Positions 9,695 through 37,013 of a DNA stretch of 64,000 nucleotides are shown one piece after another. A model generated the notes under the pieces. The model did not search any database and was not told the DNA's origin. It saw only the letters and a list, made by a program, of their open reading frames with translations. The position numbers were made by a program, and so were the translations under genes. The stretch is from IMG/VR virus record IMGVR_UViG_3300011008_000003. One strand, 5' to 3'. This stretch comes from a virus. Taxonomy: Duplodnaviria; Heunggongvirae; Uroviricota; Caudoviricetes. The first letter of the stretch is position 1; each line of letters opens with the position of its first letter.

Positions 9695-10990
9695 CTAGTG
9701 TTTTGCCTGGTAATTATTTTTGAAGAAATTTACGAGCTGTTCTTCATAAACCATTGGATATTGTTTGCCAGCATCATCAACAGCAATAACGGCACAATCA
9801 AGATGGCAAAGCATAGCACTACGGTCATGCTTACAATCTATAATTGTATAAACTGTCGGATATTTGCCTTTCTTCCTAACTTTGTCGAACTTACAATTTG
9901 CATTATATGAACGACATACTATTTTAAATAATTCTTCATTAATCATTTTGTTTTCCTTTATCTTGTCACTTTCGGTAAAAATGTCCAGAAAGCTACAGAA
10001 TCCCATGGTTCATGGTCAGAATCCTTATCATAACAAGTATCTTCTACCCAAGTCCAGTCAAAATGACCGTCGTCATAATAGGCTCTACCTACTGCACGTA
10101 AATCATAGCTACCATCTTTATAAAGAACCCACAACATTTTACCTAACATATAGTCATGCGGTTCCTTGTCTAAACTGTACCAAGTCTGTTCAGGGGTATG
10201 AACAAACTTAGTATTTTTAGGCAAACTGCCTAATAATTTCTTATTGTCTTCAACGTAAGACATAATTCATTAAATTCCTAATTCATCGTTAAGCTTTCTT
10301 AATCATTTCAAAAATTTCTTCGCACTTCTTATTTTCTGCATTGCGTGCTGCTTCAGCGTCAAGGCGTTCCTGGTTGATTTCAAGCCAGTTCATATACGGT
10401 TCAACAACACGAATCGTATCATATTCATATTTTGCACCATCTTTCAACTTGAACTGCTTAAGCACATAGTTCTTATATTCATCCATATACTTTAACGGAC
10501 ATTTATCAAGGAAAGTAAAATAATCCTTGATTTCATTAAGCTTAATGCAATTACCTAAAACATAGTTATTTTCGCCATGCTGAGTAGCGAGTGTCGGATT
10601 ATATACGAAATCCTTATTCTTTCTGTAGATTTCAATACAATGCTTGATTGTAGCTTCTGCCTTATCGGTAATGCCGTTAATAATATCAAGAGCGAAATCC
10701 TTACCGTAATCAGTAAGCTTGCCATCAATACTGACTGTATCAGAAGCACCAATCCAATGATAATCAGACATCGGACGACCGACTATAAATTCACCGGTCT
10801 TATAATCCGGCTTATCTGCATCTACAGACTTAAACGTAAGTTCGTTCAATTCTTCAAAAATAGCAGTACCTTTAACACGAACACACTTATTTTCTACATC
10901 GTAATAGAAATATTCCTTACGTTTCATATCGTCATTGAGAGATTCGACAGTATGAAGATTGTAAATTTTCTTTTTGAAGAAGTTAAACAT
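9695..10990 (-). other. Three hypothetical genes (about 9695-9946, 9958-10263, 10289-10990)
   Basis: Tandem ORFs with RBS behind an early promoter at about 11017-11046. Confidence 0.55.
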
Positions 10991-11055
10991 ATGTTGTTCC
11001 TTTTGGTTTATACCTATAATATAGAAAAAAGGTTGACTGTTGTCAACCCCTTTTT

Positions 11056-11144
11056 TCGTTGAGGTAGCTGGAGTCGAACCAGCGGTGTGTCATTAGCCGT
11101 ACAGGATTCAAAGTCCCGCGCCCTCGCCACTGAGCTATACCTCA
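11056..11144 (-). tRNA. tRNA-Gln(UUG), long variable arm
   Basis: Cloverleaf, loop CT-TTG-AA, GTTCGAC T-loop. Confidence 0.85.
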
Positions 11145-11345
11145 ATATTGACTTTTTGACACGTACTAAGTCTAAAAGCGCCTCGGCTACAAAGGTGAAC
11201 GGAGTATTGTGCCTTGTATGAAGAAGCCGCATCAGTTGTCCGTTGCTATCAAGGACTTCTTCAATTCGCCATACTGCCGATTTAGGATGTCGGCATCTTC
11301 CGATATGCAGACGAGGTTTGTACCTTTTACCTCCAAGCATGACTT

Positions 11346-11423
11346 TAGTACTCCTGTCTGGACTTGAACCAGAAACCTATCGTTTAGGAAACGACCACTC
11401 TAATCCATTTGAGCTACAAGAGC
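11346..11423 (-). tRNA. tRNA-Arg(CCU)
   Basis: Cloverleaf, loop TT-CCT-AA. Confidence 0.85.
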
Positions 11424-12107
11424 TTAATTTGATAATTGTTGTATTCTAATAGTTTGTTTTAATCTATAAATTTCAGTTTCTCTGTCTTCTAATGAAAGTT
11501 TTTGCCAATCAGACCAACGAATTCTTTTTAATAATCTCCATCCTAAATTAATTAAATTTTCAGTACGTATTTTATCATGTAAAATACCAGTTTTTGTATA
11601 ATGCTGTTCACCATCTACTTCAATATATACTTTAATATCAGGCCAAGCATAATCTAAAAAATATCTATCTACATGATATTGTTTTTCCGCATTAGTAAAT
11701 ATTTCATTAAAATATTGTTCTGCATATGATTTCCGTTTTTCTCGTGCTGTTGTATATCTCGATATATTTTTATAATTTTCTTTTTGAACAATAGAAATTT
11801 GTTTACGTGTTTCAATCGTTTGATAATGTTTATATGCGGCTTCTGGTAATGTGCCATTTAAATAATGTTCATGTCTAGTTTCTGTATATTTAGCAACACG
11901 TAAATCATTATCTTTTGTTAATCCTTTATTCCATGCTTTATGTCCTTTTCTGGGTTTATATTTTCCTTTTTCACGATTTTCATGTAATATTTTTAAACAT
12001 CTATCATCTTTATTAGGATTTAATTTACACAAACGTTCATGATTTCGTAATGAATTTGCATTTTTGCATATTTTATTGCAATATTTACATACATAATCTT
12101 GTTTCAT
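11424..12107 (-). mobile_element. Free-standing homing-type endonuclease (Zn finger plus DUF559/Vsr-like nuclease) inside tRNA operon 1
   Basis: CKYC..HERLC, WNKGLTK, YFLDYAW...IEVDGEQH; AT-rich, inserted between tRNAs. Confidence 0.7.
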
Positions 12108-12139
12108 ATTTTATTTATTTGGTTTATTAGCATCGCTTT

Positions 12140-12221
12140 TAGTCCACGGGGTTGGAGTTGAACCAACACATAGAACCTTATAAGAGCCCCTGCCTGATAC
12201 CAATCGGCTTATTGCCCGTGG
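12140..12221 (-). tRNA. tRNA-Ile(UAU)
   Basis: Loop CT-TAT-AA. Confidence 0.75.
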
Positions 12222-12225
12222 ATAA

Positions 12226-12307
12226 TAGTGGACTTGGCCGGATTCGAACCGTGCGACTCCCGTATTAAAAGTACGGTACTCTAAAATGCCTGCTGAGTTA
12301 CAAGTCC
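12226..12307 (-). tRNA. tRNA-Lys(UUU)
   Basis: Loop CT-TTT-AA. Confidence 0.8.
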
Positions 12308-12312
12308 AAAAA

Positions 12313-12395
12313 TAGTACACTAGGCGGGCTTCGAACCCGCATTTGCAGCTCCAGTTACGGCTAACGGATTAGAAGTCCGACCCGACTACTAGTGT
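12313..12395 (-). tRNA. Atypical tRNA-Arg(UCU), reduced D arm and long variable arm
   Basis: Loop CT-TCT-AA, T arm and acceptor stem intact. Confidence 0.6.
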
Positions 12396-12398
12396 ATT

Positions 12399-12474
12399 TC
12401 GTGGACCTATCCGGACTTGAACCGGAATCCGAAGATTAAAAGTCTCCTCGTCTAACCAATTGACATATAGATCC
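12399..12474 (-). tRNA. tRNA-Lys(UUU)
   Basis: Loop CT-TTT-AA. Confidence 0.85.
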
Positions 12475-12480
12475 AAAGTA

Positions 12481-12556
12481 ATTGAGGTGGAGAGATTCGA
12501 ACTCCCGAATGCATGGGTCAGAACCATGTGCCTTGAACCAGCTTGGCTACGCCTCA
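12481..12556 (-). tRNA. tRNA-Gln(CUG)
   Basis: Loop TT-CTG-AC. Confidence 0.85.
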
Positions 12557-12562
12557 GTATAT

Positions 12563-12595
12563 AAAAAAACAGTTCCCGTATTGCTACAGGAACTG
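12563..12595 (-). terminator. Attenuator terminator, tRNA operon 1
   Basis: CAGTTCCTGTA-GCAA-TACGGGAACTG followed by T7. Confidence 0.85.
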
Positions 12596-12626
12596 AAATA
12601 ATTGAATAAGGTAAACTCTTACGCTA

Positions 12627-12704
12627 TCATTCGTTTCCCATAGCAAAACACACAGCTATTTGCTGTTTTCTTATCTGTTTTACTTGTTTAACGAATTGCT
12701 TCAT
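12627..12704 (-). CDS. Leader peptide 1, MKQFVKQVKQIRKQQIAVCFAMGNE
   Basis: AAAGG RBS; CAA/CAG, AAA, ATA, AGA codons match downstream tRNAs. Confidence 0.85.
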   Translation of the reverse strand: MKQFVKQVKQIRKQQIAVCFAMGNE

Positions 12705-12796
12705 TTTCTTTAACCTTTATAATTATATATAACAGTTGTTTGTTAATTTTCGCTTTTTAATATAGTAAATTTTTCTCTAGTTGTAAACCCTAAAAA

Positions 12797-13021
12797 TTAT
12801 TTTTTATCAAAATATTTTTCTACATCGTTATTTTCATAGTATTGTGCAGGCTGCTCAGTAAAATGATCAACGATTCCTACTAGCACAAAAACTACAACGA
12901 TAAATGCAAGGAAGAAAACAGCAGCCATAGCGCCCGGAGCCAAAAAGCTACCGACGATTGAATCCGGCGAATTGCCTGCGTACTGTGCCGCCAAAATCTG
13001 TGCTCTTGTCGCGTTATCCAT
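12797..13021 (-). CDS. Small membrane protein
   Basis: Single hydrophobic segment. Confidence 0.55.
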   Translation of the reverse strand: MDNATRAQILAAQYAGNSPDSIVGSFLAPGAMAAVFFLAFIVVVFVLVGIVDHFTEQPAQYYENNDVEKYFDKK

Positions 13022-13033
13022 ATTTTATATATT

Positions 13034-13240
13034 AAAAAGTCCCGTAATTAATCATACAAATTAATACGGGACATGATTTATATCACACAAGCACGCCGAC
13101 GTCACCCTATCCGTAGAGGTCGAGTCCGTGAATCTCAGCGAAGGGTGTAACCCGTCCTTCGCCGCACTATTATACACACGTAATTGCTATCCCTAGCCGG
13201 CACCTTACTGGACCGTGTACATGCTTATGTTTTATGTCTT
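13034..13240 (-). ncRNA. Candidate stand-alone sRNA of about 200 nt
   Basis: Own promoter (TTTACA..TACTAT), closing helix, internal hairpins, terminator GTCCCGTA..TACGGGAC plus T tract, no ORF. Confidence 0.5.
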
Positions 13241-13317
13241 TAATATAGTAAAATAGAAAAGACTTGTAAACCCCCTTTATATAAAAAATATGAGGCGATA
13301 TTTATCGTCTCATATCT

Positions 13318-13412
13318 TAGAAGAGGTGGTAGGATTCGAACCCACGGTCCGGGATGATTACCGAATCACCGGAGTTCAAATCCGGCACCATAAACCACTC
13401 GGTCACACCTCC
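13318..13412 (-). tRNA. tRNA-Ser(UGA)
   Basis: Loop TT-TGA-AC, long variable arm. Confidence 0.85.
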
Positions 13413-13420
13413 ATAATTTT

Positions 13421-13506
13421 TAGCCGAGGATGAGAGGCTCGAACTCCCATGCAGTTTCCCACGTCCGCTTTCTAGGCGGGTGCACTACCAATTGTGCGTA
13501 TCCTCG
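13421..13506 (-). tRNA. tRNA-Ser(AGA)
   Basis: Loop CT-AGA-AA, long variable arm. Confidence 0.8.
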
Positions 13507-13687
13507 AAAATTCCATAATATATTATTCCCTGAGCGCCGCGAAATATTAGTGTAATATCTGTATCTCTCTTTCAGTCTCGAAGACGATTTCTCAGTAATA
13601 TACGGCGTAATTCGCAATCACCCATTACGCTTGTATATTCGAAGTTAACACCGTTGCGCCATGTTAACTTATACACTCTATATTATG

Positions 13688-13764
13688 TAGTCCCGGAGGT
13701 TGGGCTCGAACCAACGACCTTTTGATTATGATTCAAACGCTCTAACCAGCTGAGCTACTCCGGG
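13688..13764 (-). tRNA. tRNA-Met or Ile2 (CAU)
   Basis: Loop AT-CAT-AA. Confidence 0.8.
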
Positions 13765-13769
13765 ATGGT

Positions 13770-13832
13770 AATAGCGGGAAGTAAATTACCGATTTTAAGT
13801 CTGTTTTTTAATAGGAACTTCCATATGCTATT
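13770..13832 (-). ncRNA. GUUCCUAU scaffold RNA carrying a Leu(UAA)-like anticodon stem-loop
   Basis: AGCA-NN-stem-GTTCCTATT...GA-CTTAAAA-TC...TAC-stem-CGCT. Confidence 0.6.
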
Positions 13833-13840
13833 AATTTCTT

Positions 13841-13932
13841 TTAGCGGGATGTAATTTGCCTTTCGGCTTTCGGATTTGAACCGAATCAAGGCCTGACGGC
13901 CTATCATCCATAATAGGAACATCCTTTGCTAA
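13841..13932 (-). ncRNA. GUUCCUAU scaffold RNA carrying a T-arm-like hairpin
   Basis: Same scaffold; insert includes TTCGG-TTCAAAT-CCGAA. Confidence 0.6.
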
Positions 13933-13935
13933 ACT

Positions 13936-14024
13936 TAGTAGCAGGGGCTGGATTCGAACCAGCGTGGACCTTTCAGTGCTCTAGGGTATGAACCTAGCGA
14001 GCTCGACCTCTACTCGACCCTGCG
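13936..14024 (-). tRNA. tRNA-Met(CAU), long variable arm
   Basis: Loop TT-CAT-AC. Confidence 0.8.
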
Positions 14025-14033
14025 ATAATTTTT

Positions 14034-14173
14034 TAGTAGGCGGCCTTGGATTCGAACCCCGGCAAGTCTCTCGTCCTAAACTTCGTGTTTTCTCGCGACC
14101 TAGCACGAAGGTCTGAGAGCGTTCTCTCTGCTGTGATTGCTGATGCAATCCCGTTCCGTTTGAACTATCGCCC
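14034..14173 (-). ncRNA. tRNA-like RNA with large multi-hairpin insert and no clear anticodon
   Basis: Acceptor-like ends GGGCG/CGCCT and GGTTCGAATCC T-loop, about 140 nt. Confidence 0.5.
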
Positions 14174-14398
14174 ATAATAAACTTTGTTTCGGTTTTTACC
14201 GAAGATTCCGAAAAACTCCAGCGGACTGCCGCCTTTTTACCTCTAGCTTTAAACACGTCCACTGTTTTAAGGCCGCAACCTTTTTCGCACAGTGTCTCAA
14301 GCGAACTAATTGGTAGCAGATTGCCCTCTCCTCAGTCATTCCTAGGAAACCTTGGAGGACAAGAATAATCCAATGATGATCAGTCATTATCTGCCTTT

Positions 14399-14488
14399 TA
14401 GTGCTAGCTAAGGGAGTCGAACCCCTGATGTTAACTCATAAGAGACGTGATCTACAGTCACGCGCAATCGCCACTCTGCCAAACTAGC
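14399..14488 (-). tRNA. tRNA-Tyr(GUA)
   Basis: Loop CT-GTA-GA. Confidence 0.85.
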
Positions 14489-14505
14489 ATAAGCACACAA
14501 ATTTT

Positions 14506-14592
14506 TATGACAGCTGTTGGACTCGAACCAACGAAAGCCCGTTAGGGCGGGAGGGTTACAGCCTCCAGGAATTGCCGCTATCCGAAACTGCC
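14506..14592 (-). tRNA. tRNA-Tyr(GUA)
   Basis: Loop CT-GTA-AC. Confidence 0.85.
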
Positions 14593-14669
14593 GAATTTCT
14601 CGGACTTTCACCGAGCGTTTATCCATTCTATCCTATACAGCGTTTGCCTCAAGGGACTGGACAATCAGT

Positions 14670-14702
14670 AAAAAAGAAAAGCCGCAGATTGCGCTGCGAC
14701 TT
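14670..14702 (-). terminator. Attenuator terminator, tRNA operon 2
   Basis: AAGTCGCAG-CGCAAT-CTGCGGCTT followed by T-rich tract. Confidence 0.8.
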
Positions 14703-14727
14703 AATAAAGTTTTATAATAAAACCCTA

Positions 14728-14814
14728 CTAGTCGCGACACCCCATATAATACATGGAATAACCGAACATCGAGCTCGGAACTAATGACCATGAATATGAA
14801 TAAGAGTGCAACAT
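14728..14814 (-). CDS. Leader peptide 2, MLHSYSYSWSLVPSSMFGYSMYYMGCRD
   Basis: AAGGA RBS; rich in Ser(TCN), Tyr, Met. Confidence 0.85.
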   Translation of the reverse strand: MLHSYSYSWSLVPSSMFGYSMYYMGCRD

Positions 14815-14922
14815 AATTTTTCCTTTTATATTATATATAAAAACTTTTTTATGTTTTTCGTTTTTACATACGTAAATATAGTAAATATTTTTCTCTTTGT
14901 AAACCCCTAAAATAAAAATTTT

Positions 14923-15231
14923 TTATGGTCCTGTATTTGTTGAAACAATTGCTGGTACGTATGGACAATAAATAATTCCTCTCGATTGTTTCTTCAGTTT
15001 CCGTGCTTGTTTTTTCGTCAATATTTTTGGCGGAGGCGGATTAATGAATTTTCTTTCCCATTCATAATATTCATTTCTTAAGCGTACACGTTCTGCTTTC
15101 GGTAATCCATTAAATGCACGCTCAGTTGGCGTATGCGGCTGGTCATAGGCTAAAAAATAATGGCGCATAATAAATGTACCGCTAGAACCGACAATAAAAA
15201 ATGTTTCATTAGCAAAGAAATCCTTTTTCAT
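14923..15231 (-). CDS. Hypothetical protein
   Basis: ORF downstream of tRNA-like RNA. Confidence 0.5.
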   Translation of the reverse strand: MKKDFFANETFFIVGSSGTFIMRHYFLAYDQPHTPTERAFNGLPKAERVRLRNEYYEWERKFINPPPPKILTKKQARKLKKQSRGIIYCPYVPAIVSTNTGP

Positions 15232-15272
15232 TTTTATAAGGACTCTCTCTGCTTGTAATTCAGTTGAAATCA

Positions 15273-15387
15273 TAGGACGATACTGCGGAATTGAACCGCC
15301 AGACACCATATCTACACCGACTCGAACGGCCACTCACCAAGAGAACACGGAATTGAACCGTTTTCAGCACCATTACTAAGTATCGCC
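15273..15387 (-). ncRNA. tRNA-like RNA with three T-loop hairpins
   Basis: Acceptor GGCGATAC/GTATCGTC; ACGG-TTCAATT-CCGT, GCCG-TTCGAGT-CGGT, GCGG-TTCAATT-CCGC; own promoter. Confidence 0.6.
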
Positions 15388-15431
15388 AATTATAATATAG
15401 AAAAAGGATTGATATTTGTCAACCCTTTATT

Positions 15432-15454
15432 TAGCGGTGCTGGAAGGATTCGAA
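15432..15454 (-). pseudogene. 3' remnant of a tRNA (T-loop plus acceptor strand)
   Basis: TTCGAATCCTTCCAGCACCGCTA abutting the endonuclease stop codon. Confidence 0.5.
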
Positions 15455-15455
15455 T

Positions 15456-16469
15456 TTATTTTTCAAATTTTCTTCTAAAATATTTTCCTTCAAAATCTTT
15501 TTTAAAACGTTCTAAGGTGTCTTCAATAATTCTTTTTGTATAACCTGTTTCTTTTTCAACTTTTCCAACCCATCCAAATTTTTGTAAATCAATACCACAA
15601 TTTAAAATAAGATTCTTACGTTCTATCCAAATTTCTTCTGATATAATATTTGGATTACCTTTACCTGATTTATCTTTTGGATATAATGATTCTTTTTTAA
15701 TTTTTGGTTTCTTTTTTAATTTTCTTATTTTTATATTAGGATATTGTTCTTGAAGTATTTTTATTTCTTCTAAATTTTTTAATTTATCTACTTTATATAA
15801 TAAATTATCTTTTTCTGAATAACGCCAAAATTCACAGTTAAGTTTTTCGATAATATATGCTTGCCTACACTTATCACGTAATATTCCTTTTATTTGTGTA
15901 TGTTTAGATTGTTTTTCATCATATTCAAAAACAATATTTAACACTTTATCATAACCATCGACATGATAAGGTCCTACTTTATATTCGCCGCCATTCATAG
16001 CGTGCTGTAAATGCCAATTATTTTTTATATTTAGTTCATCAATAAATTTACATGCTTTTTCATTATAATTACATTGGCAATTAATTATATTTTTACGTTC
16101 CAGCATTTTTTCTGCAAGTTTAGCCCTAGATTCAGGTGTATGTGGTTTACTAATACCTTTTAATTCACCAGAAGCGTATTTTCTTTTTATTGTTTCTGCA
16201 GATTTACGTTTGCTGTCAATATTAATTGTTTTTCCTAATGAATCTTTTGGTAATTTAGTTTTTTCTTCGCAATCCTTATAATGCTTATATAATTTTCGTC
16301 GTGAATAAAATATTTGATTGCAATATTGGCAAGTCCATTCTTTATATTTTGTTTTAAAACATTTTTCCGGATGCATTATATGCATATGTTCATATAATGA
16401 CATTTTTGTATCAAATACATTATTACAATAACTACATTTCCATTTATTTATTTTTATATTCGAACCCAT
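15456..16469 (-). mobile_element. Free-standing homing-type endonuclease (two Zn fingers, NUMOD3-like, PD-(D/E)XK-like)
   Basis: CSYC..H..H, CQYC..H..C, KPHTPESRAKL, VDGYD...VFEYDE; AT-rich. Confidence 0.7.
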
Positions 16470-16509
16470 ACATTATATATAATGGCTGAGTCTGCCAGTT
16501 CTGTAAAAA

Positions 16510-16601
16510 TAACCGAAGGTACAGGGTTCGAACCTGTGTGAGACCTTTGACAGCCTCGGAAGTTTAGCAAACTTCTGCAATTACCATTCTGCCAACCTTC
16601 G
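16510..16601 (-). tRNA. tRNA-Ser(GCU)
   Basis: Loop TT-GCT-AA, long variable arm. Confidence 0.85.
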
Positions 16602-16604
16602 TTA

Positions 16605-16693
16605 TAGTCCCTTAGGGGAGACTCGAACTCCCACGGAATTTAATCCATCAGATTCTAAGTCTGACGCGTATTAACCATTTTCGCCACACAGGG
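16605..16693 (-). tRNA. tRNA-Leu(UAG)
   Basis: Loop CT-TAG-AA. Confidence 0.85.
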
Positions 16694-16699
16694 ATATAT

Positions 16700-16791
16700 T
16701 ATCGGTCTGGAGGGATTCGAACCCACAATCCGTATTTATCTCGGCTGCCGGGTTTGAGCCGACACTGTATACCATTTCCAAGCACAGACCG
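16700..16791 (-). tRNA. tRNA-Leu(CAA)
   Basis: Loop CT-CAA-AC. Confidence 0.85.
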
Positions 16792-16794
16792 GTT

Positions 16795-16881
16795 TATCGT
16801 CAAAGTGGGACTCGAACCCACACGTCCTTTCGGACACGAGACTCTCATTCTCGCGAGGCTACCAGATTACTCCATCTGACG
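16795..16881 (-). tRNA. tRNA-Leu(GAG)
   Basis: Loop AT-GAG-AG. Confidence 0.8.
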
Positions 16882-16885
16882 TTAT

Positions 16886-16969
16886 TATCGATACGAAGGG
16901 ACTCGCACCCTTAATCCATTTCTGGCATCACCCTCTCAAGATGACATGTATACATTCCATCACGTATCG
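16886..16969 (-). tRNA. tRNA-Leu(GAG)
   Basis: Loop TT-GAG-AG, T-loop GTGCGAGT. Confidence 0.75.
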
Positions 16970-16970
16970 T

Positions 16971-17056
16971 TATCTGGCTGGAGAGACTTGCACTCTCATG
17001 GAGTTACCCCCGGCACGGTTTAAGCATGCTATGTCTTCTAATTTCATCACAACCAG
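16971..17056 (-). tRNA. tRNA-Leu(UAA)
   Basis: Loop CT-TAA-AC. Confidence 0.75.
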
Positions 17057-17066
17057 TAAATTAGTT

Positions 17067-17142
17067 TAGAGCTGATAGTAGGAATCGAACCTACTCATAG
17101 AAAGTTTTGCAGACCCCTCCGTTCCCACTTCGGCATATCAGC
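17067..17142 (-). tRNA. tRNA-Cys(GCA)
   Basis: Loop CT-GCA-AA. Confidence 0.8.
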
Positions 17143-17154
17143 ATATTAAAAATT

Positions 17155-17233
17155 TATCCACAGGGTGAGAATCGAACTCACAGACTCACGAGCCTCTGAA
17201 GCCCGCCGCTTTGCCAAGTTTGCGTACCTGTAG
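17155..17233 (-). tRNA. tRNA-Leu(CAG), short variable arm
   Basis: Loop TT-CAG-AG. Confidence 0.75.
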
Positions 17234-17245
17234 TAACTTATATTT

Positions 17246-17322
17246 TAGCACCCCGGTAAGGATTCGAACCCTAATCAGCTGGGTTGGAGCCAGCCATGCT
17301 TAAACCATTACACCACCGAGAT
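17246..17322 (-). tRNA. tRNA-Trp(CCA)
   Basis: Loop CT-CCA-AC. Confidence 0.85.
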
Positions 17323-17324
17323 AT

Positions 17325-17355
17325 AAAAAAGGTCCCTACTTTTCGTAGGAACCTT
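17325..17355 (-). terminator. Attenuator terminator, tRNA operon 3
   Basis: AAGGTTCCTAC-GAAAA-GTAGGGACCTT followed by T tract. Confidence 0.85.
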
Positions 17356-17383
17356 GTAAAACCTTTTTGATTCAGGAAATGAA

Positions 17384-17476
17384 TTATTGGTTTGTTACCT
17401 TGTCCCTACTGTGTACTACGAAACACCAGCTAAGCAAGCTGAGGAGTAGTAAACTAGTGAGACAAACCTTTTTCAT
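17384..17476 (-). CDS. Leader peptide 3, MKKVCLTSLLLLSLLSWCFVVHSRDKVTNQ
   Basis: AAAGGA RBS; Leu, Ser(AGY), Trp, Cys codons match downstream tRNAs. Confidence 0.85.
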   Translation of the reverse strand: MKKVCLTSLLLLSLLSWCFVVHSRDKVTNQ

Positions 17477-17584
17477 TTCTTTAATCCTTTATATTATATA
17501 TAAAAAGTTTTTTGTGTTTTTTGTTTTTACATAGGTAAATATAGTAAAAGTTTTTCCTTTTGTAAACCCTAAAAAATAATTTTT

Positions 17585-17908
17585 TTATTCCTTCCAAGTT
17601 TTTGTATATTCATCAAATTTAGAAAGTAGAAAATCAAATTCCTTATTGATTAAATCCGGAAATAGATTCAGTCTTTCAAACTTGAATGCGCCACAATCTG
17701 GGTCATGATTCGGATCTTCTGTAAGAATCAAATCATACATCTCATAATTGTCCGTTTCTGCAAGGCATGTTTTGAACCTGTCATAAAGATGCGAATAGAA
17801 CTTCGCTATCAATTCAAGGTTTTCATTTTGACACATGTTATAACGAGCCCACCAATTAGGTTCGTCAGGACGTGCCGACTTATCGACTAATAAAATATTG
17901 TACCACAT
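17585..17908 (-). CDS. Hypothetical protein
   Basis: ORF. Confidence 0.5.
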   Translation of the reverse strand: MWYNILLVDKSARPDEPNWWARYNMCQNENLELIAKFYSHLYDRFKTCLAETDNYEMYDLILTEDPNHDPDCGAFKFERLNLFPDLINKEFDFLLSKFDEYTKTWKE

Positions 17909-18119
17909 ATCAGAAAATATAGATAAAAATATTGGCTTTGTAAATATGTAAAAAAATTTTTATATATACTACAGGTTTTCAAACGTAGCTCGTAAGGCTA
18001 CAGTACGGGTATCGAAAATACCGGAAGGGTTTTCCTCATAAAAAACCCATGGCTCGTGAACATGATAGTACGCTGGTACAGGATTGCGGGAATGATATAA
18101 TCTTTAACAAAGGTCAAAT

Positions 18120-18908
18120 ATGAATATAACTAAGAAAGAGATAGACGCTCTCGTAAAATGCGCCGAAAATGTCAATTACTTTAGTAAGTACGTCCAGATA
18201 ATTACTGCTAAAGGTCGTTCAAAATTCAAACCGTATTCTTATCAGAGAAAGCTTCTGAAAAAGATAATGGACACTTATAACAGTCCACCGGAAGAAAAAC
18301 ACAATAATATAATAGTCGCACCGAGACAGATAGGCAAGACGACACTTCTGGCAATTTATGCATTATGGTTCGCCTTATTTAAACCGGATAAGTATATTGC
18401 CATACTGTCGTTTAAACATGCGGCTTCGAAAGAAATCTTGTCGAGAATCAAGGATATTTACAATACCCTGCCGGAATTCTTGAAATTACAACCCAAGATA
18501 AACAATGTCGAAATGCTCGGATTTGTAAACGGTTCCAAGATATTCGCAGCACCGTTTAAATCGTGTAGCATTAAAGGAAGAACTGTCGACTTGCTTATAT
18601 TCGATGAAGTCGCATTTACAAATGAACACGATTTCGATGATTTCATGTGGAGTGTATTCCCTACGCAGGCATGTAGGCCGAATGCACAAATGATAATGTG
18701 TTCTACCCCTCATGGGACAGAACACGGATTCTATAAGATATGGAAAAAATCAATTGACGGGCAAAATTCATTTGTTCCGACAAAACTCAAATGGAACTGT
18801 GTTCCATATCGTACAGCAGAATGGAAAAAGAAAAAGATGTTAGAATACGGCGAAGCATTCTTTAAACAAGAGCTTGAAGCCGAATTCATAACATCCAAGA
18901 GCTTATAG
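18120..18908 (+). CDS. Terminase large subunit-like ATPase domain, no nuclease domain
   Basis: YQ adenine motif, APRQIGKTT Walker A, LLIFDE Walker B, STPHG motif III, ends at FKQELEAEF. Confidence 0.8.
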   Translation: MNITKKEIDALVKCAENVNYFSKYVQIITAKGRSKFKPYSYQRKLLKKIMDTYNSPPEEKHNNIIVAPRQIGKTTLLAIYALWFALFKPDKYIAILSFKHAASKEILSRIKDIYNTLPEFLKLQPKINNVEMLGFVNGSKIFAAPFKSCSIKGRTVDLLIFDEVAFTNEHDFDDFMWSVFPTQACRPNAQMIMCSTPHGTEHGFYKIWKKSIDGQNSFVPTKLKWNCVPYRTAEWKKKKMLEYGEAFFKQELEAEFITSKSL

Positions 18909-20175
18909 TATCTGTTCTGTCTTAATTCTCAAGCGCTTGTAATAATCTTTAGTACGGTCAATTTCTTTCTGTCTTTCCTTAGCAGATTCGACTGACATGA
19001 TAGTAAAGGTTTTTCCAAGCTGAGTTGTAACTTCTTCGGTCAATGTATCTACAACAGAATTTACATTGACCGTTCTTTTTGTAATCCCGTCGTCGATAAC
19101 CGCGATATAGTCAATCTTTGCCTTCTTAGCCTTTTCAAGTTCAAGGCGCAGACTGTCTTCACGTAACAGTTCAGCTCTGATACTATCCCTACGATGAATA
19201 TATTGGGCAAGGCTGTCACGGATATGCTGCCTACGTTCTTCCTGTTCAGCCAACGTAGCTGCACGCTTTGCTTCCATCAAAGAATCGAATGCCGCAATTA
19301 TTTTCGGATCTCCTTCAATCTTTTTATTCAAGAACTTAGAGAAAGAAGACGGATTAGTCGTTTCGGCGTCACTGACGATAATGATATGCTTATCGTCCTT
19401 GAACATATCCATATAGTTCTTATAACAGCCATTACGAATACGGGACGGAATTGTAGTCCAGTCATATTCATAAATGTTCTTGTTACTCATAAGAATGACA
19501 GGAGCCGTCTTCTTTTCGTCATAGAAACCGAGAATATTGATATTTTCAAACGGACCAATACCGGTAACAGTATAAGTCCATGAATACATGGCACCGGCCG
19601 TATTACGTTCAGCCTGTACCTTGAAGGTCAAATACTTATATTTCAAAGCACTGTTATTGTCAACCATATTAATCCTTGATGATATTGTCAAACTGAGTCG
19701 AAAGGTCTTTACTTGTTTTCTGCTTAACCGGATCTGGGAAAATCAACTTTGAAATCCCGTCAGTTACAATGTTAAAGAATCCGAAAATAATCATAAACGG
19801 CAAGGCGAGAAGCATGATACCGCAAGAAGTCAGATGAATAAACAACAGAATAGACATCTTGAATATGAATCGCTTCTGTTCAAGCGAAAGCTTGTCATAT
19901 TTGGCTTTTTTAGGAATATTGTACTTATTTTCGATACAGCACGAGATAATCATCGTGCCCCAGTATACGACAGAAACTGCGACCCACGGCGTCGTAACAT
20001 CCGTAAAACCGTCACTGCATGTTGTAATAATACATGCAATTGTCGAAATTACTTCTCCCAGAAGCAATAGAATATAGATAATCGCAATAGCGCCGAGGTC
20101 GTCATGAGAAACGCCGGCTGCTACATCTTCATCATAGAAAAATTTGAGTGTAAATTCTTGAAATTTACGAAACAT
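18903..20175 (-). other. Two hypothetical genes (membrane protein 19669-20175; coiled-coil protein about 18903-19668)
   Basis: ORFs behind an early promoter. Confidence 0.55.
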
Positions 20176-20257
20176 AATTACTCCTTGGTTTTGTACATAT
20201 ACAATATAGAAAAAGGGCTGACTTGCGTCAACCCTTTCTTTGAAAATATATTATATA

Positions 20258-20983
20258 TTATAGGTCTGCAGATTTGGAATCGAGCTGCTTCTGAGCATAG
20301 TTACAGCCTTCAGTATCAGACTGGTAACAGATAAGGCCGCGAGGAATTCCGTACGGGAAATCCCTGCCTACGAACTTTCTATCATACCAGAAATACAGAT
20401 AGCTAGGAACAAAGCCCTTGTTTTCATTAGGAACTACACAATCATAACGCTGTTCACGCTTAAGCGGACGACCATCCTTAGTTAAAATCGTACAAATATC
20501 GAAACCGGCATCGTCTTCAGCTTCGCCGTGTAAGTAAACACTATTATCGATTGATGTATACTGTTTAATAGTATCGTAATTATTATAAGCGTCCGGCATA
20601 ATAACAATCTGACCCTGGTTAAGAAGTTCGGTAACTTTTTCTGGAAGTTCATCTTCAAACGAGTCACGGTTCAGAATAGCGCCGAGATTTGCCTGAATAT
20701 CGAAAATTTTCTTGATAAAATCGTCAATATCCTTAGACCAAGTAAGTTCTTGGTTAGTTGTTCCCTTATAAAGAACATAGGCACCGTCGTCTTCCTTTTT
20801 AACGGTTACTGCCAAGCCTTCGGGATTTGCCTTACTCTTAATCTTAAATTCTTCGCCTGATGCGAGGTATTGTTCGATACGGCTCTTCATGCCAGCCATC
20901 TGAGCCGGAGTAACATCTGCATATGCTTCGCAAATAGTATAACCGGCAGTTTTTAAAACTTTTTTAGCTTCAGTTAAATTCAT
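20258..20983 (-). CDS. Late protein with MNLxEAKxxLKxxGY leader
   Basis: TATAAATA plus AGGAG upstream; shared N-terminus. Confidence 0.65.
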   Translation of the reverse strand: MNLTEAKKVLKTAGYTICEAYADVTPAQMAGMKSRIEQYLASGEEFKIKSKANPEGLAVTVKKEDDGAYVLYKGTTNQELTWSKDIDDFIKKIFDIQANLGAILNRDSFEDELPEKVTELLNQGQIVIMPDAYNNYDTIKQYTSIDNSVYLHGEAEDDAGFDICTILTKDGRPLKREQRYDCVVPNENKGFVPSYLYFWYDRKFVGRDFPYGIPRGLICYQSDTEGCNYAQKQLDSKSADL

Positions 20984-21025
20984 TTGAATCTCCTATTTTT
21001 ATTATTTATAATAGGAGAATCTATT

Positions 21026-21101
21026 TATCCCAAGGCCGGAACTCGAATCCGAACTAACAGAATCACAATCTGCTGTGCTAGCCAATTACACCACCGCGGG
21101 G
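21026..21101 (-). tRNA. tRNA-His(GUG)
   Basis: Loop TT-GTG-AT. Confidence 0.8.
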
Positions 21102-21107
21102 ATGATT

Positions 21108-21183
21108 TAGAGCCCTATGCCGGGTTCGAACCGGCGCCACCTGCTTGGAAGGCAGAAATGCTAAGCCACTACACCAATAGGAC
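21108..21183 (-). tRNA. tRNA-Gly(UCC)
   Basis: Loop CT-TCC-AA. Confidence 0.85.
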
Positions 21184-21189
21184 ATATTT

Positions 21190-21266
21190 TAGAGCCCTAG
21201 ACGGAATTCGAATCCGTAAACCTTCTCCATGGCAAGGAGACATTCTACCAGTTGAACTACTAGGAC
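21190..21266 (-). tRNA. tRNA-Gly(GCC)
   Basis: Loop TT-GCC-AT. Confidence 0.85.
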
Positions 21267-21269
21267 ATT

Positions 21270-21345
21270 TCGAGCGATAAATGGGACTCGAACCCACAAC
21301 CTATTCCATGGCAAGGAATCGCTCTACCAGTTGAGCTACTACCGC
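21270..21345 (-). tRNA. tRNA-Gly(GCC)
   Basis: Loop TT-GCC-AT. Confidence 0.85.
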
Positions 21346-21533
21346 ATAACCTAATTTTTTATCTTCCCGGTGTCGGACACGAGAAATTAGTAAAACTCCC
21401 ACCGCATAGTTCATGCCAGCGACTGCTTTCTTGAGGACAAGAACCGTGCCCTGTCAGCTTTTTATACCTAATGGTTCTCTGACGAAACATAGCTAGAGCT
21501 CATACCGTAGCTAAATAAGTATGAGATAGATTT

Positions 21534-21609
21534 TAGTGCCACTACCTGGATTCGAACCAGGACCCGCTGATTAAGAGTCAGCTCGACTAGGCCATTATCA
21601 TATAGAGGC
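21534..21609 (-). tRNA. tRNA-Lys(CUU)
   Basis: Loop CT-CTT-AA. Confidence 0.8.
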
Positions 21610-21616
21610 AAAATTT

Positions 21617-21692
21617 TCGTACCCCAGGAAGGACTCGAACCTTCAACCCACTGATTAAGAGTCAGCTGCGCTACCAATTGCGCCACTGAGGC
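21617..21692 (-). tRNA. tRNA-Lys(CUU)
   Basis: Loop CT-CTT-AA. Confidence 0.9.
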
Positions 21693-21693
21693 A

Positions 21694-21772
21694 TAGTGCA
21701 CCCGACAGGCTTCGAACCTGTAACCGCCGGCTTCGTAGGCCGATGCTCTAAATCCAGTTGAGCTACGGGTGC
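21694..21772 (-). tRNA. tRNA-Arg(ACG)
   Basis: Loop CT-ACG-AA. Confidence 0.9.
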
Positions 21773-21780
21773 AAATTTGT

Positions 21781-21857
21781 TAGCGATCATGGTGGGATTC
21801 GAACCCACGAAAACTGGTTAGACAGACCAGCGCCCTAGACCACTAGGCGACACGACC
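21781..21857 (-). tRNA. tRNA-Asp(GUC)
   Basis: Loop CT-GTC-TA. Confidence 0.85.
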
Positions 21858-21862
21858 AAATT

Positions 21863-21918
21863 AATAGCGAGAAGTAATAATACAGATTTGCAGTCTAATA
21901 GGAACTTCATATGCTATT
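21863..21918 (-). ncRNA. GUUCCUAU scaffold RNA carrying a Cys(GCA)-like anticodon stem-loop
   Basis: Scaffold with TAGA-CTGCAAA-TCTG insert. Confidence 0.6.
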
Positions 21919-21992
21919 TAGCGGTCTCAACGGGTCACGATCCCGTACCTCCAGCGTGACAAGCTGGTGTCCATCCATTAAACGATGAGACC
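21919..21992 (-). tRNA. tRNA-Asp(GUC)
   Basis: Loop TT-GTC-AC. Confidence 0.8.
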
Positions 21993-21996
21993 AAAT

Positions 21997-22027
21997 AAAA
22001 AAGATTCCTGTGAGTTGCACAGGAATC
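21997..22027 (-). terminator. Attenuator terminator, tRNA operon 4
   Basis: GATTCCTGTG-CAACT-CACAGGAATC followed by T6. Confidence 0.9.
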
Positions 22028-22053
22028 AATCTAAAACTTTTTACAGTTAAAAA

Positions 22054-22155
22054 CTAGATGACCCTGTGCTTGTGTCGATCCTTATCATGCTTACCGAAAC
22101 CTCGTCCGTCGCGGCGAGTCTTGCAATCATGAATGTCAACTACAAACTGAGTCAT
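22054..22155 (-). CDS. Leader peptide 4, MTQFVVDIHDCKTRRDGRGFGKHDKDRHKHRVI
   Basis: AAAGG RBS; Asp, His, Lys(AAG), Arg(CGN), Gly codons match downstream tRNAs. Confidence 0.85.
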   Translation of the reverse strand: MTQFVVDIHDCKTRRDGRGFGKHDKDRHKHRVI

Positions 22156-22208
22156 TTTCTTAACCTTTATATTATATATAAAAAATTTTTTCCTGTTTTT
22201 GCAAAATA

Positions 22209-22327
22209 AACAGCGGGCAGTAACTGGCAACAAGAGTAGGACTCGAACCTACGACCTTTCACCTTGCGGTGAGTGCTCTAACCAACTGAGCTACCTCGTT
22301 AATTTTATAGGAACCGCGTATGCTGTT
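22209..22327 (-). ncRNA. GUUCCUAU scaffold enclosing a complete anticodon-less tRNA mimic (22225-22300)
   Basis: D arm, T arm, acceptor with encoded CCA; anticodon loop replaced by a GCAA tetraloop. Confidence 0.65.
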
Positions 22328-22396
22328 CTCATTTATTTTACGTTGTTAAATATAGTAAATTGTTTTAGCTTTGTAAACCCCTAAAAATAATTTTTT

Positions 22397-25300
22397 TTAT
22401 CTTATGTCAATTAACCAAACCTTATGCCACAAATTACTGCCTTTATCCTTTTCAATATAAGTCTTTATGCAATAAGTGGATTTGTTGAATGCCCTACTGG
22501 CTATCATAAGTAATTTTTCAGCAAAAGCAGTCCTTATCGTATCAAGCTGGAAACTTGACACATAATCCGGAAAAGTAGAACCTTCAGTTACATACAAGCA
22601 CATTTTCGGATCTTGTAATAACTTATTGGCTATTGCATTAAACTGTTTTTTGGCCATCAATGCTTCAATTTCATAAATGTCTTCGATTGATAACATATAG
22701 CAGGAATTTTGATATTCAGTCATTGTGTACTCCTTATTTTTATAAACGCTTTAATAACAATTCTGTTCCGATATTCATGACGTAGGTTATGAATTTTTGT
22801 CTATCTGATTCACGCATAATTTTCTCGTAAACTTCACGGTCAAAATATGTATGAAGTTTTTCTCTCCATATTACATGATTATATGCAGACAATTCCCATG
22901 TAAGATTATCCTTGAGAAGTTTTTCTTTAATATCATACTCCTGATATTTTAAAGTATATACAGAATCATGATAATATGGAACATATAAATATACTTCAGG
23001 TATTCCGTTAACCCTTTTCAGAAACATTCCGAAATTCTCTTGGGAATATTTAAGCGTTTTAGTAAGATTCATCGTTCTACAAAATGTATAAGTTCTGTAT
23101 CTTTTAATTTCGACACCCAGTCAAGCACTTCATCGTGCTGTTCCTTAGTAATAGACTCCTCCTCATATAAGAAAAAGTTATCGATTACGTCAGCAATGCT
23201 TTCAAAATAACAAATATCGTCTGGATCGTAATTAGCTTCAAAGCTTTCTCTAAGATAATCTGGCATTTCAGGCCACATATCTTCGATTTTAAGAGCCGAT
23301 ACCTTGGAGATTGGAAGGTTCTCGCATCTTTTCATCAAAACTTTCCAACGTTCATCGTCACAGAGTTCTTCGTATGTCATATTAGTTATCCTGTATATGG
23401 TTAATCCAATCACGAATCGTATTCGGATTCGCTCGTCCTTGAAATTTTGTCATTATATATTTCATAATATCGTTCACTTCACCAACACGCCATTCCGGAT
23501 GATTGTCATACATGAAGTTGAGACAAATCCAGAATTCAGATTCTGTCGGGCATAGTTGATGTAGACCGCGACCGGCTGGATTAAAATAACGCTTATTGAA
23601 ATATTCGATTATCTTTTCATCATTCATTATTTTACCTCCTCGTGAGAATAACAACGGTCATGGCATTCAGGACAACTGAATGTATATTCAAATTCATTCA
23701 TTCCTGTTTGATAGTTTTCACACTTATATTTCGGCGCGTTAAATTCGGTTCCGCATCTGGTACATACGAATTTCAATTTTATTGCAGGCTTCATAATGTC
23801 GACTTCGCCGATAGTCGCTACCGGTTGTTTTTCAGTCGGGCCTAAGCATGTTACTGAATCAATCTTCATAAAATGTTTATACTTGTTCTTGGCGAACTTG
23901 ATAATTGCATTATTCAATTCTTCGCCAACTAAGTCGGTTTCAAAATAATCATTCGAATGATGGTCGTCCCAATCATCGAATCCCATATAACCGTCATAAG
24001 TCTGGTAATGAACACGTACTTGATAACCCTGTTTCATATTAGCTCCTAATCAATTTATCGAATTCTTTAGACAACGCCAAAGCCGGACGCCGTATTTTCC
24101 ATCTATTCTGCTTCTTACGTTCGGCTTCATAGTAAGTATTTACCCGTCGTTGGCGTTCAATAATTTTTTCCATATAAGTATCATATGTCTTTTCTTTTAT
24201 AAAATCTGCTGCACGCCACATTACAGTAAAAATATACAAAAGAAATATCAAAAGTATCGGTCCAGCTAGAACCGTACTAAATACTTTAAAAACTAAACCG
24301 AAATCGATAGTCATATTATTTCTTCAATAGGTCGTCGAACCTGGAACGAATGGATTTTGCTGCTTCTTCTTTTTTCTTTATACGTTCATCGGCGCTGCCA
24401 AGATAAAGTATAGCAAAAATAATAGTAAGTATCGGACCCATCAATGCGCCCATACATATAATAAGAAATTCTATCGGACTTTCAAGCTTTATATACCTAT
24501 AGATTACAATAGCATTGATAACTCCGCAAATAAGCCAGATTATTTGCTTTATTGTTTCTTGGTCAATCATTATACTTCCTCCCATGAAGAATCGAGTATC
24601 ATATCCCACATCTTGCAATATGTATCTAAATCCATATATCCGTCTACCTTGACTTTTACTTCGTCTTTCAAGATTTCTTCCAAGGCATATGCGATAGGAT
24701 CCGGTGTTTTCTTTATAATATCATGAATATATGAAACGACGCCTTTTCCCATGGCTACGATATTTCGATAATGTTCGTTATCGAAACCATGGCCGGTAGA
24801 ATTAAAAAGGGTTTCGTTCTGCCATGCCTGATATTCTATTAAGAATGTTGCTTTAGGTATGTATTCCATCATTATTACCAAAATATAAAAAATTTATTTC
24901 CAAATCAAGCGCCTGATATGCCTGTTCAAGTTCATAGAGGTCACCGATTACAAAACGTTTACCATTAAATTCAATCCAGTTATCGCCAGAATATCTATCT
25001 TCACGGTCATTAGTTACTAATTTAAAAATATTCGGAATAACAGGAATTGCACTACAAGAATATCCCATGTGCTTGTCTATTTCCGGCGGAAACGGTTGTT
25101 TCGTAGTCCAACACCAGTTATCACGATAATGCAGGAAAAAACATGGAACAGATATTTCATTCCTTATCATCGTTTGCGGATAATATGGTAATCTCGTAAC
25201 ATAATCCTTAAGTTCATACTTATAATCCGTTACGTCAACAAGAATAGAGCCTTTTGAAAGTCCCATTGTCGGATAATAATGTGCAAGCAAGTTCATATTT

Positions 25301-31185: not shown

Positions 31186-31262
31186 TATTACCAGGCTCGG
31201 AATCGAACCGAGAATCTTTTGTCCTTCCGAACAAACGCTCTTACCATTTGAGCTAACCCAGC
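31186..31262 (-). tRNA. Atypical tRNA, anticodon undetermined (8-nt loop or GGAA tetraloop)
   Basis: Normal D and T arms; TTTGT-TCGGAAGG-ACAAA. Confidence 0.55.
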
Positions 31263-31263
31263 A

Positions 31264-31504: not shown

Positions 31505-31552
31505 AAAAATAAAACTGACCTTACTCATCTCAACGCGTACTATTGACTTTCG

Positions 31553-31627
31553 GTTAGCGCATACGGGATTCGAACCCGTGACCAGCGGCCTTCACACCGC
31601 TTGTTCTACCGCCGAACAAAATGCGTT
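31553..31627 (-). tRNA. tRNA-Phe(GAA), divergent
   Basis: GTGAAG in anticodon loop, T arm GGTTCGAATCC. Confidence 0.6.
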
Positions 31628-31635
31628 ATCAGTTT

Positions 31636-36306: not shown

Positions 36307-36376
36307 TGGCGGGTCGTAAAACCTTTTGATTACCAATCAACTGCTCATCTGAGCTAAATAGGAACGACCTATGCCA
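36307..36376 (-). ncRNA. GUUCCUAU scaffold carrying D arm plus Thr(GGU) anticodon arm
   Basis: TAGCTCAGATGAGCA-GTTGA-TTGGTAA-TCAAA-AGGTT, ends CCCGCCA. Confidence 0.65.
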
Positions 36377-36952: not shown

Positions 36953-37013
36953 AAACAGCGGGCAGTAAGAACCATAAACCAAAGGAGTAAAATAGGAACT
37001 GCGTATGCTGTTT
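36953..37013 (-). ncRNA. GUUCCUAU scaffold RNA with unstructured insert
   Basis: ACAGCA-TAC-GCAGTTCCTATT...TACTGC-CCGCTGT, right after a promoter. Confidence 0.55.

Follow-up and report, generated by a model that had tools for sequence, protein, structure and literature searches.

The closest described systems are the enterobacterial multivalent attenuators (ilvGMEDA, responding to Ile/Leu/Val, and thrL, responding to Thr/Ile; also leuL, trpL, hisL and pheL). In these systems a short translated leader carries the regulatory codons, several amino acids can be served by one leader, a terminator overlaps an antiterminator, and the position of the stop codon lets a finishing ribosome mask the antiterminator strand. 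The phage locus described here (17325-17505) has the same layout, with a leader that is probably translated. It differs in cargo, resolution and origin. The enterobacterial attenuators control biosynthetic enzymes, whereas the cargo of the phage unit is tRNAs, the very molecule whose shortage would be sensed; the match between leader and cargo reaches the level of codon and isoacceptor (e.g. Ser AGY versus TCN, Gln CAG versus CAA); and the unit is viral, one of a set of six that partition the genetic code, with no sequence or Rfam relationship to the enterobacterial leaders. None of the Rfam leader families (Leu_leader, Trp_leader, Bacteroid-trp, Phe_leader and others) matched at its gathering threshold; the best scores were 23.5 bits for Bacteroid-trp (threshold 49) and 18.4 bits for Phe_leader (threshold 55), both with E > 1.

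The pheM/pheST system of E. coli is a leader-peptide attenuator of an aminoacyl-tRNA synthetase operon and senses Phe. Like the phage unit, it controls a component of the translation apparatus and not a biosynthetic pathway. It is cellular, its cargo is a synthetase and it responds to one amino acid, whereas the phage unit carries tRNAs and would respond to four amino acids through about ten codons. T-box riboswitches also sense the state of a specific tRNA, use a terminator/antiterminator switch and precede translation-related genes. Their ligand is the uncharged tRNA itself, neither ribosome nor ORF takes part, and they contain a specifier loop and a T-box sequence, whereas the phage unit has a leader ORF; the Rfam T-box model gave no match at E up to 10 in 17200-17700.

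Phage T4 is likewise a large lytic phage with clustered tRNA genes, which are co-transcribed and processed from a precursor, with early- and late-type promoters nearby. We know of no leader-peptide attenuator ahead of the T4 cluster, and a full-text literature search, in which subscription journals were thinly covered, brought up no report of one. Within that coverage it likewise gave no account of leader-peptide attenuation acting on tRNA genes, in phages or in cells. Tandem tRNA genes, nine in the present case, lie outside the classical scope of leader-peptide attenuators (amino-acid biosynthesis and synthetase genes). Within the coverage of this search, control of tRNA genes by such an attenuator was not found described, and we regard it as a known mechanism class with a new cargo.

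The window, the whole stretch of 64,000 nucleotides analysed here, contains 52 tRNA genes, all on the - strand (ARAGORN). GenBank phages include no close relative by megablast, and the sole blastn match among them is the tRNA-Trp gene of a Vibrio phage. The closest relatives are IMG/VR viral contigs, two of which, at 416 and 424 kb, are complete genomes bounded by direct terminal repeats; the window can therefore be recognized as a piece of an uncultured giant phage. A PHROGs search of the neighbouring ORFs returned one name only, a terminase large-subunit fragment at 18120-18908 (+). Just 262 residues, the ATPase part, are matched, and the surrounding genes are encoded on the other strand; the terminase large-subunit gene may be split or interrupted.

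The unit under study is read on the - strand. From promoter to cargo, its elements are:

17538..17569 (-), early sigma-70-like promoter, predicted by promoter scan: GGG-TTTACA (-35, 17566-17561), 17 nt spacer, TATATT (-10, 17543-17538)
17486..17506 (-), AT-rich box TTTTTATATATAATATAAAGG, conserved, overlapping the Shine-Dalgarno sequence AAAGGA (17490-17485)
17384..17476 (-), leader ORF of 30 codons plus TAA (17386-17384), encoding MKKVCLTSLLLLSLLSWCFVVHSRDKVTNQ
17423..17464 (-), sensor run, codons 5-18 (C L T S L L L L S L L S W C), 13 of its 14 codons read by downstream tRNAs
17440..17467 (-), region 1, predicted 'protector' strand pairing with region 2 in untranslated RNA (minimum-free-energy folds)
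17389..17409 (-), region 2, antiterminator 5' strand: GTAGGGAC (17409-17402) plus the extension GGTAACAAACC (17399-17389), in codons 23-29, directly before the stop codon
17370..17384 (-), small hairpin (ATTCA/TGAAT) within the antiterminator loop, from folds
17345..17363 (-), region 3, common to antiterminator and terminator: GGTTTTAC (17363-17356) plus the terminator 5' arm AAGGTTCCTAC (17355-17345)
17325..17339 (-), region 4, terminator 3' arm GTAGGGACCTT (17339-17329) and a run of six T (17330-17325)
16513..17322 (-), nine tRNA genes, the cargo (ARAGORN), with intergenic gaps of 3-14 nt

We consider it very likely that this arrangement is a ribosome-mediated (leader-peptide) transcription attenuator gating a nine-gene phage tRNA array. 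The phage would probably make these nine tRNAs only when ribosomes read the Leu/Ser(AGY)/Trp/Cys codons of the leader slowly. The ATG of the leader follows its Shine-Dalgarno sequence at 8-9 nt, inside the range of this phage's genes. The intrinsic terminator (17355-17325) has 11 pairs, a 5-nt loop (GAAAA), a G+C-rich base, U6 and a hairpin energy of -16.3 kcal/mol (terminator scan plus hairpin energy). Only 2 nt separate the T run from the start of tRNA-Trp (17322), which leaves no space for a separate promoter. The leader RNA as a whole folds at -49.2 kcal/mol (z = -5.0), far more stably than its shuffles.

The promoter belongs to a recurrent type. The consensus GGGTT(T/G)ACA-N17-TATATT occurs at 23 sites on the - strand of the window, once before each of the six tRNA units; this count comes from a regular expression with variable spacing, while a fixed-spacing pattern gave 0 matches. 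Examples of such sites on the - strand are 20233, 15424, 11048, 29884, 29365 and 35513. In several of the 23 copies the -35 box lies within a terminator-like hairpin (AAAGGGTTGAC...GTCAACCCTTTTT), so that a single element seemingly ends one transcript and starts the next.

The AT-rich box precedes five of the leaders with at most one mismatch and the sixth with one insertion (shuffles give 0.33 matches per window), and it is also conserved before tRNA leaders in related contigs. At other leaders of the window it lies at 36925-36908, 32244-32227, 22181-22164 and 14840-14823, all on the - strand. The box of the tRNA leaders contains TATATATA; a one-base variant containing TATAAATA precedes ordinary protein genes in both the window and the 424-kb relative (for comparison, 2863-2846, 30566-30549 and 44997-44980). 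The TATAAATA motif matches what we take to be the octamer of T4 late promoters. On this basis the AT-rich box may be a second promoter, of a distinct class, for the tRNA units.

The initial annotation placed the leader ahead of Trp, Cys, Ser(GCU) and six Leu tRNAs, and ARAGORN finds exactly this set at 17322-16513, in the order Trp(cca), Leu(cag), Cys(gca), Leu(taa), Leu(gag), Leu(gag), Leu(caa), Leu(tag), Ser(gct); the first of these genes also has an Rfam tRNA match. The leader contains seven Leu codons (CTC x3, TTA, CTA, TTG, CTT; no CTG), four Ser codons, one TGG and two TGT. The five Leu codons that had been pointed out are all present, but their diversity is not significant alone (five distinct codons among seven Leu, P = 0.19). 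The claim that Ser appears only as AGY, next to TGG and TGT, agrees fully with the count (AGY 4/4, P = 0.011, with AGY making up 32% of the Ser codons in the phage). Overall, 14 of 29 leader codons are read by the array, against a background of 12.5% (binomial P = 2.6e-6), where the background is the share of array-read codons in 61 long ORFs of the window; within codons 5-18 the share is 13 of 14. The sensor run contains one non-cognate codon (Thr), and Leu(cag) is present in the array while CTG, its only codon, is missing from the leader.

The match extends to the whole set of units. All six tRNA arrays of the window, on the - strand, stand behind one and the same series of elements (a promoter of this type, the box, a short ORF, a strong terminator), and the amino acids encoded in each leader correspond to the tRNAs behind it:

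36898-36777 (-), leader N, T, P; array Asn/Pro/Thr
32218-32058 (-), leader E, A, F, I, V; array Glu/Ala/Phe/Val/Ile
22155-22003 (-), leader D, R, G, K, H; array Asp/Arg/Lys/Gly/His
17325-17505 (-), leader L, S, W, C; array Trp/Leu/Cys/Ser (the unit under study)
14814-14679 (-), leader Y, S (TCN), M; array Tyr/Met/Ser
12704-12570 (-), leader K, Q; array Gln/Lys

Summed over the six leaders, codons matching the leader's own array number 90, against a mean of 28.7, and the true pairing of leaders with arrays is the unique best of 720 assignments. The complete 424-kb relative (G001) has leaders of different sequence; there the corresponding values are 104 and 30.1, and the true pairing is again the unique best, here of 5040 assignments. 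The correspondence also separates isoacceptors of one amino acid. In the Tyr/Met/Ser leader, ahead of an array with Ser(aga) and Ser(tga), six of the seven Ser codons are TCN, in contrast to AGY in 4 of 4 with Ser(gct) in the Trp unit. Lys codons are AAG with the Lys(ctt) array and mostly AAA with the Lys(ttt) array.

Several other RNA-like elements lie among these arrays. Three tRNA-like genes on the - strand (22225-22300, 31188-31263 and 31552-31628) have irregular anticodon loops with 2- or 4-base 'anticodons' (ARAGORN); the first of them comes after the early promoter of the Asp unit and before its box, ahead of the Asp-unit attenuator. From the terminator of the Glu/Ala unit to the first called tRNA there are about 85 nt (32050-31964, -) with a T-arm-like GGTTCGACTCCGG, and ARAGORN calls a tRNA-Phe at about the equivalent position in the relative L023; the stretch may hold an undetected or degenerate tRNA. 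A repeated element, N5-GTTCCTAT ... N5'-CCGC, occurs on the - strand at 36365, 33505, 32571, 13920 and 13818, with looser copies at 36999, 22314 and 21905. Its N5 and N5' segments are complementary yet differ among copies, so the stem covaries. The element lies between or beside tRNA genes and in some copies encloses what resembles a T arm; a stable tRNA-like RNA and a processing element are possible identities.

Relatives of the Trp-type leader show how leader and cargo change together. Scans for the box motif and the terminator motif, together with searches of large contigs, gave 13 distinct DNA variants in three clades; the leader ORF is open in all of them. A metagenome scan with a loose hairpin pattern returned mostly generic palindromic hairpins, and among the matches listed 1 of 120 loci was relevant (L144, of the same type as L009). 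The clades differ in cargo as follows:

Clade A (window, L001-L004), leader MKKVCLTSLLLLSLLSWC...; Cys tRNA present, Gln(ctg) absent; two Cys codons, no CAG
Clade B (G002, G003, L085-L087, L093 and others), leader MKSLSLQCQLLSSSLLSWCLLSS...; Cys tRNA present, Gln(ctg) present; two Cys codons, two CAG
Clade C (G001, G004, L009, L084, L091), leader MKMLSLTILLLSSLLLSWLLRR...; Cys tRNA absent, Gln(ctg) absent; no Cys codons, no CAG

Clade C genomes carry their Cys and Gln(ctg) genes in the Tyr array, and there the Tyr leader has three Cys codons, plus three CAG in G001. The gene for tRNA-Gln(ctg) is found in the Gln/Lys unit of the window, in the Trp unit of G002 and in the Tyr unit of G001; in each of the three, CAG codons occur solely in the leader of the unit that bears Gln(ctg), and the other leaders containing Gln use CAA, beside Gln(ttg). 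The Ser codons of the sensor run are AGY in all variants, and a lone TCT in clade B is codon 3, upstream of the run. Synonymous changes within the run stay in the array-read set (AGT/AGC, CTT/CTC, CTA/CTT, TTA/TTG); the sole swap that leaves it is AGC/AAC (Ser/Asn). The reverse of the Leu(cag) case is met in clade C, where CTG can be present without Leu(cag), and Leu(tag) would read CTG. L002 has its tRNA genes in a different order from the window, with no change in gene set or leader. This leader-cargo co-variation is, in our view, the strongest evidence that the ORF would sense these tRNAs; the covariation amounts to few independent events, namely one both-sided helix change and the gain or loss of a tRNA gene on two or three occasions.

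Agreement at codon level also bears on what the leader would respond to. Since a stalled ribosome cannot distinguish a missing tRNA from an uncharged one, the same structure might have host amino-acid starvation as its input and link tRNA output to host nutrition. The anatomy is that of the classical trp, leu, his, thr and ilv attenuators, which respond to tRNA charging. We nevertheless regard a starvation input as unlikely: the cargo consists of tRNA genes, and extra tRNA cannot cure an amino-acid shortage. Moreover, leader and cargo match by codon and anticodon and not by amino acid (Ser AGY versus TCN, Lys AAG versus AAA, CAG tracking Gln(ctg)), which is what a sensor for individual tRNA species requires. 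Given the codon- and isoacceptor-level match and the tRNA cargo, a shortage of tRNA is favoured over a lack of charging as the sensed input.

The switch itself is built on a repeated octamer. GTAGGGAC has exactly two copies in the 64-kb window, both strands searched, one in the 3' part of the ORF (17409-17402) and one in the terminator 3' arm (17339-17332); shuffles give a mean of 0.63 copies per window. Both copies complement one and the same terminator 5' arm and so compete for it. The initial annotation had described the leader octamer as an exact copy of the terminator 3' arm. This is so in clades A and B, but not in clade C, where the two strands differ and both still complement region 3. 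Its further claim, that the leader copy competes directly for the terminator 5' arm, gains support from the alternative folds described below and from the pairing kept among variants.

Ribosome positions were modelled with a footprint whose A site could occupy any sensor codon up to TGG, and the RNA was folded as it stands before the terminator 3' arm exists. With a ribosome on the sensor run, region 2 is predicted to pair with region 3 (17363-17345) in every fold, and the terminator 5' arm is sequestered. In this predicted antiterminator, GTAGGGAC pairs with GTTCCTAC, and the helix is extended by GGTAACAAACC with GGTTTTAC, around the small hairpin. A ribosome at the stop codon masks region 2 in the model; the antiterminator then does not form and region 3 is available to the terminator. 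With no ribosome, the full-RNA fold has region 1 (about 17467-17440) paired with region 2 (17409-17389), and the terminator is predicted to form. Clades B and C give the same three modelled outcomes as clade A. Region 2 begins 13-20 nt after the last sensor codon, and the antiterminator strand is followed by the stop codon within 2-6 nt. The two competing structures are of comparable energy, the antiterminator at -14 to -20 kcal/mol and the terminator at -12 to -16.

Comparison among relatives supports the two competing helices. The 2:3 antiterminator helix is 8/8 paired in 12 of 12 distinct variants; pairs were counted by a script on regex-anchored segments, because MAFFT alignments of the leaders misplace region 2 of clade A. 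Relative to clades A and B, clade C has GTTCCCAC in place of GTTCCTAC in region 3, an A to G change at a paired base of region 2 (GTAGGGAC to GTGGGAAC) and an A to G change at a paired base of region 4. One A-U to G-C change thus affects both sides of 2:3 and is mirrored in 3:4, so that one compensatory event supports both helices. At two more helix positions the change is one-sided and pairing is retained. A small hairpin is present at the position of the antiterminator loop in each clade, with unrelated sequences. The 1:2 pairing appears in the minimum-free-energy fold of all three clades, with different partners in each and without covariation support; this predicted 'protector' helix is the least supported element of the model.

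These helices also weigh on the nature of the output. The leader might sense codons and yet act on processing or stability of the precursor, for example by making the hairpin before tRNA-Trp more or less accessible to RNase E, III or P, and the hairpin does adjoin the tRNA-Trp 5' end, the RNase P cut site. We judge such an output quite improbable. The hairpin is a textbook intrinsic terminator (11 bp, G+C-rich base, U6), a terminator is present in all six units, and its U-tract is retained in every relative; the alternative helix sequesters exactly the 5' arm, and the compensatory change is common to both helices.

Still less probable is that the ORF encodes a small hydrophobic peptide (signal-peptide-like or membrane), with the hairpin as its leaky terminator and the tRNAs made by constitutive read-through. 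The peptide begins with MKK followed by a Leu-rich stretch, as a signal or transmembrane segment would, and it is conserved within clades. Its hydrophobic positions, however, are nearly all Leu and its Ser codons solely AGY; the presence of Cys and Gln codons tracks that of the tRNA genes, and none of the five sister leaders is hydrophobic (one is rich in D, R, K, H and G), though each matches its own tRNA cargo. The region-2 copy of the terminator arm would also be left without explanation. A lipoprotein signal peptide was considered and rejected: LSWC in the leader peptide is, as we understand the motif, not a standard lipobox, and the five sister leaders are non-hydrophobic. Finally, an ordinary terminator beside an accidental short ORF is scarcely credible: short ORFs and hairpins are common in AT-rich intergenic DNA, and 10000-24000 holds 21 terminator-like sites against 9.3 in shuffles, but chance would have to account for the codon content (P = 2.6e-6), for unique best pairings among 720 and 5040 assignments in two genomes, and for an ORF, sensor codons and both helices conserved in three clades.

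The attenuator reading proposed in the initial annotation is accordingly strengthened by the four-part anatomy, the fold geometry of stalled and finishing ribosomes, the matching across six units, the co-variation of Cys and CAG codons with tRNA genes, and the compensatory change shared by the two helices. The parts, their mutually exclusive pairings, the codon-tRNA match and the co-evolution of leader and cargo can all be read from sequence. What we infer from them is that the leader is translated, that ribosome and polymerase are coupled, and that the unit responds to tRNA shortage. Leader-peptide attenuation needs a ribosome that keeps pace with RNA polymerase, which is not so in all bacteria (Bacillus subtilis has been reported as uncoupled).

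As an attenuator, the unit would work as follows. Host RNA polymerase would initiate from the early promoter, with the AT-rich box as a possible second start, and a ribosome would load onto the 30-codon leader. When codons 5-18 are decoded fast, the ribosome would reach the stop codon and cover region 2 (17409-17389). The terminator (17355-17329 plus the U-tract) would then form and the transcript would end at about 17325, 2 nt before tRNA-Trp. When charged tRNA for any sensor codon is scarce, decoding would slow, and the ribosome would stall upstream and leave region 2 exposed. Free region 2 would pair with the terminator 5' arm, and polymerase would read through into the array. The newly made tRNAs would relieve the stall, closing a direct negative-feedback loop. 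A separate function of the Leu-rich 30-residue peptide is also conceivable.

The role of phage tRNAs is debated: proposals include compensation for codon usage, replacement after host shut-off and escape from tRNA-cleaving defences. Tentatively, and with slightly less than even confidence, the six units may be viewed together as a codon-resolved tRNA homeostat and counter-defence, in which a failing host tRNA would call up a replacement block of tRNAs reading the failing codons. Such failure could arise by decay after host shut-off, by codon-usage mismatch or by cleavage by a host anticodon nuclease. If the homeostat reading is true, six small test genes would monitor the decoding of nearly the whole code, and each leader, co-evolving with its cargo, would be a list of the tRNAs that the phage needs to watch.

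If the attenuators work as read here, trp-style attenuation, not found described for tRNA genes, would control them in this phage, in a feedback loop whose regulated product is the sensed molecule. The leaders would be compact natural sensors of decoding speed for defined codons, and each would predict which tRNA shortages induce which array. Expression of phage tRNAs would then be demand-driven and codon-specific.
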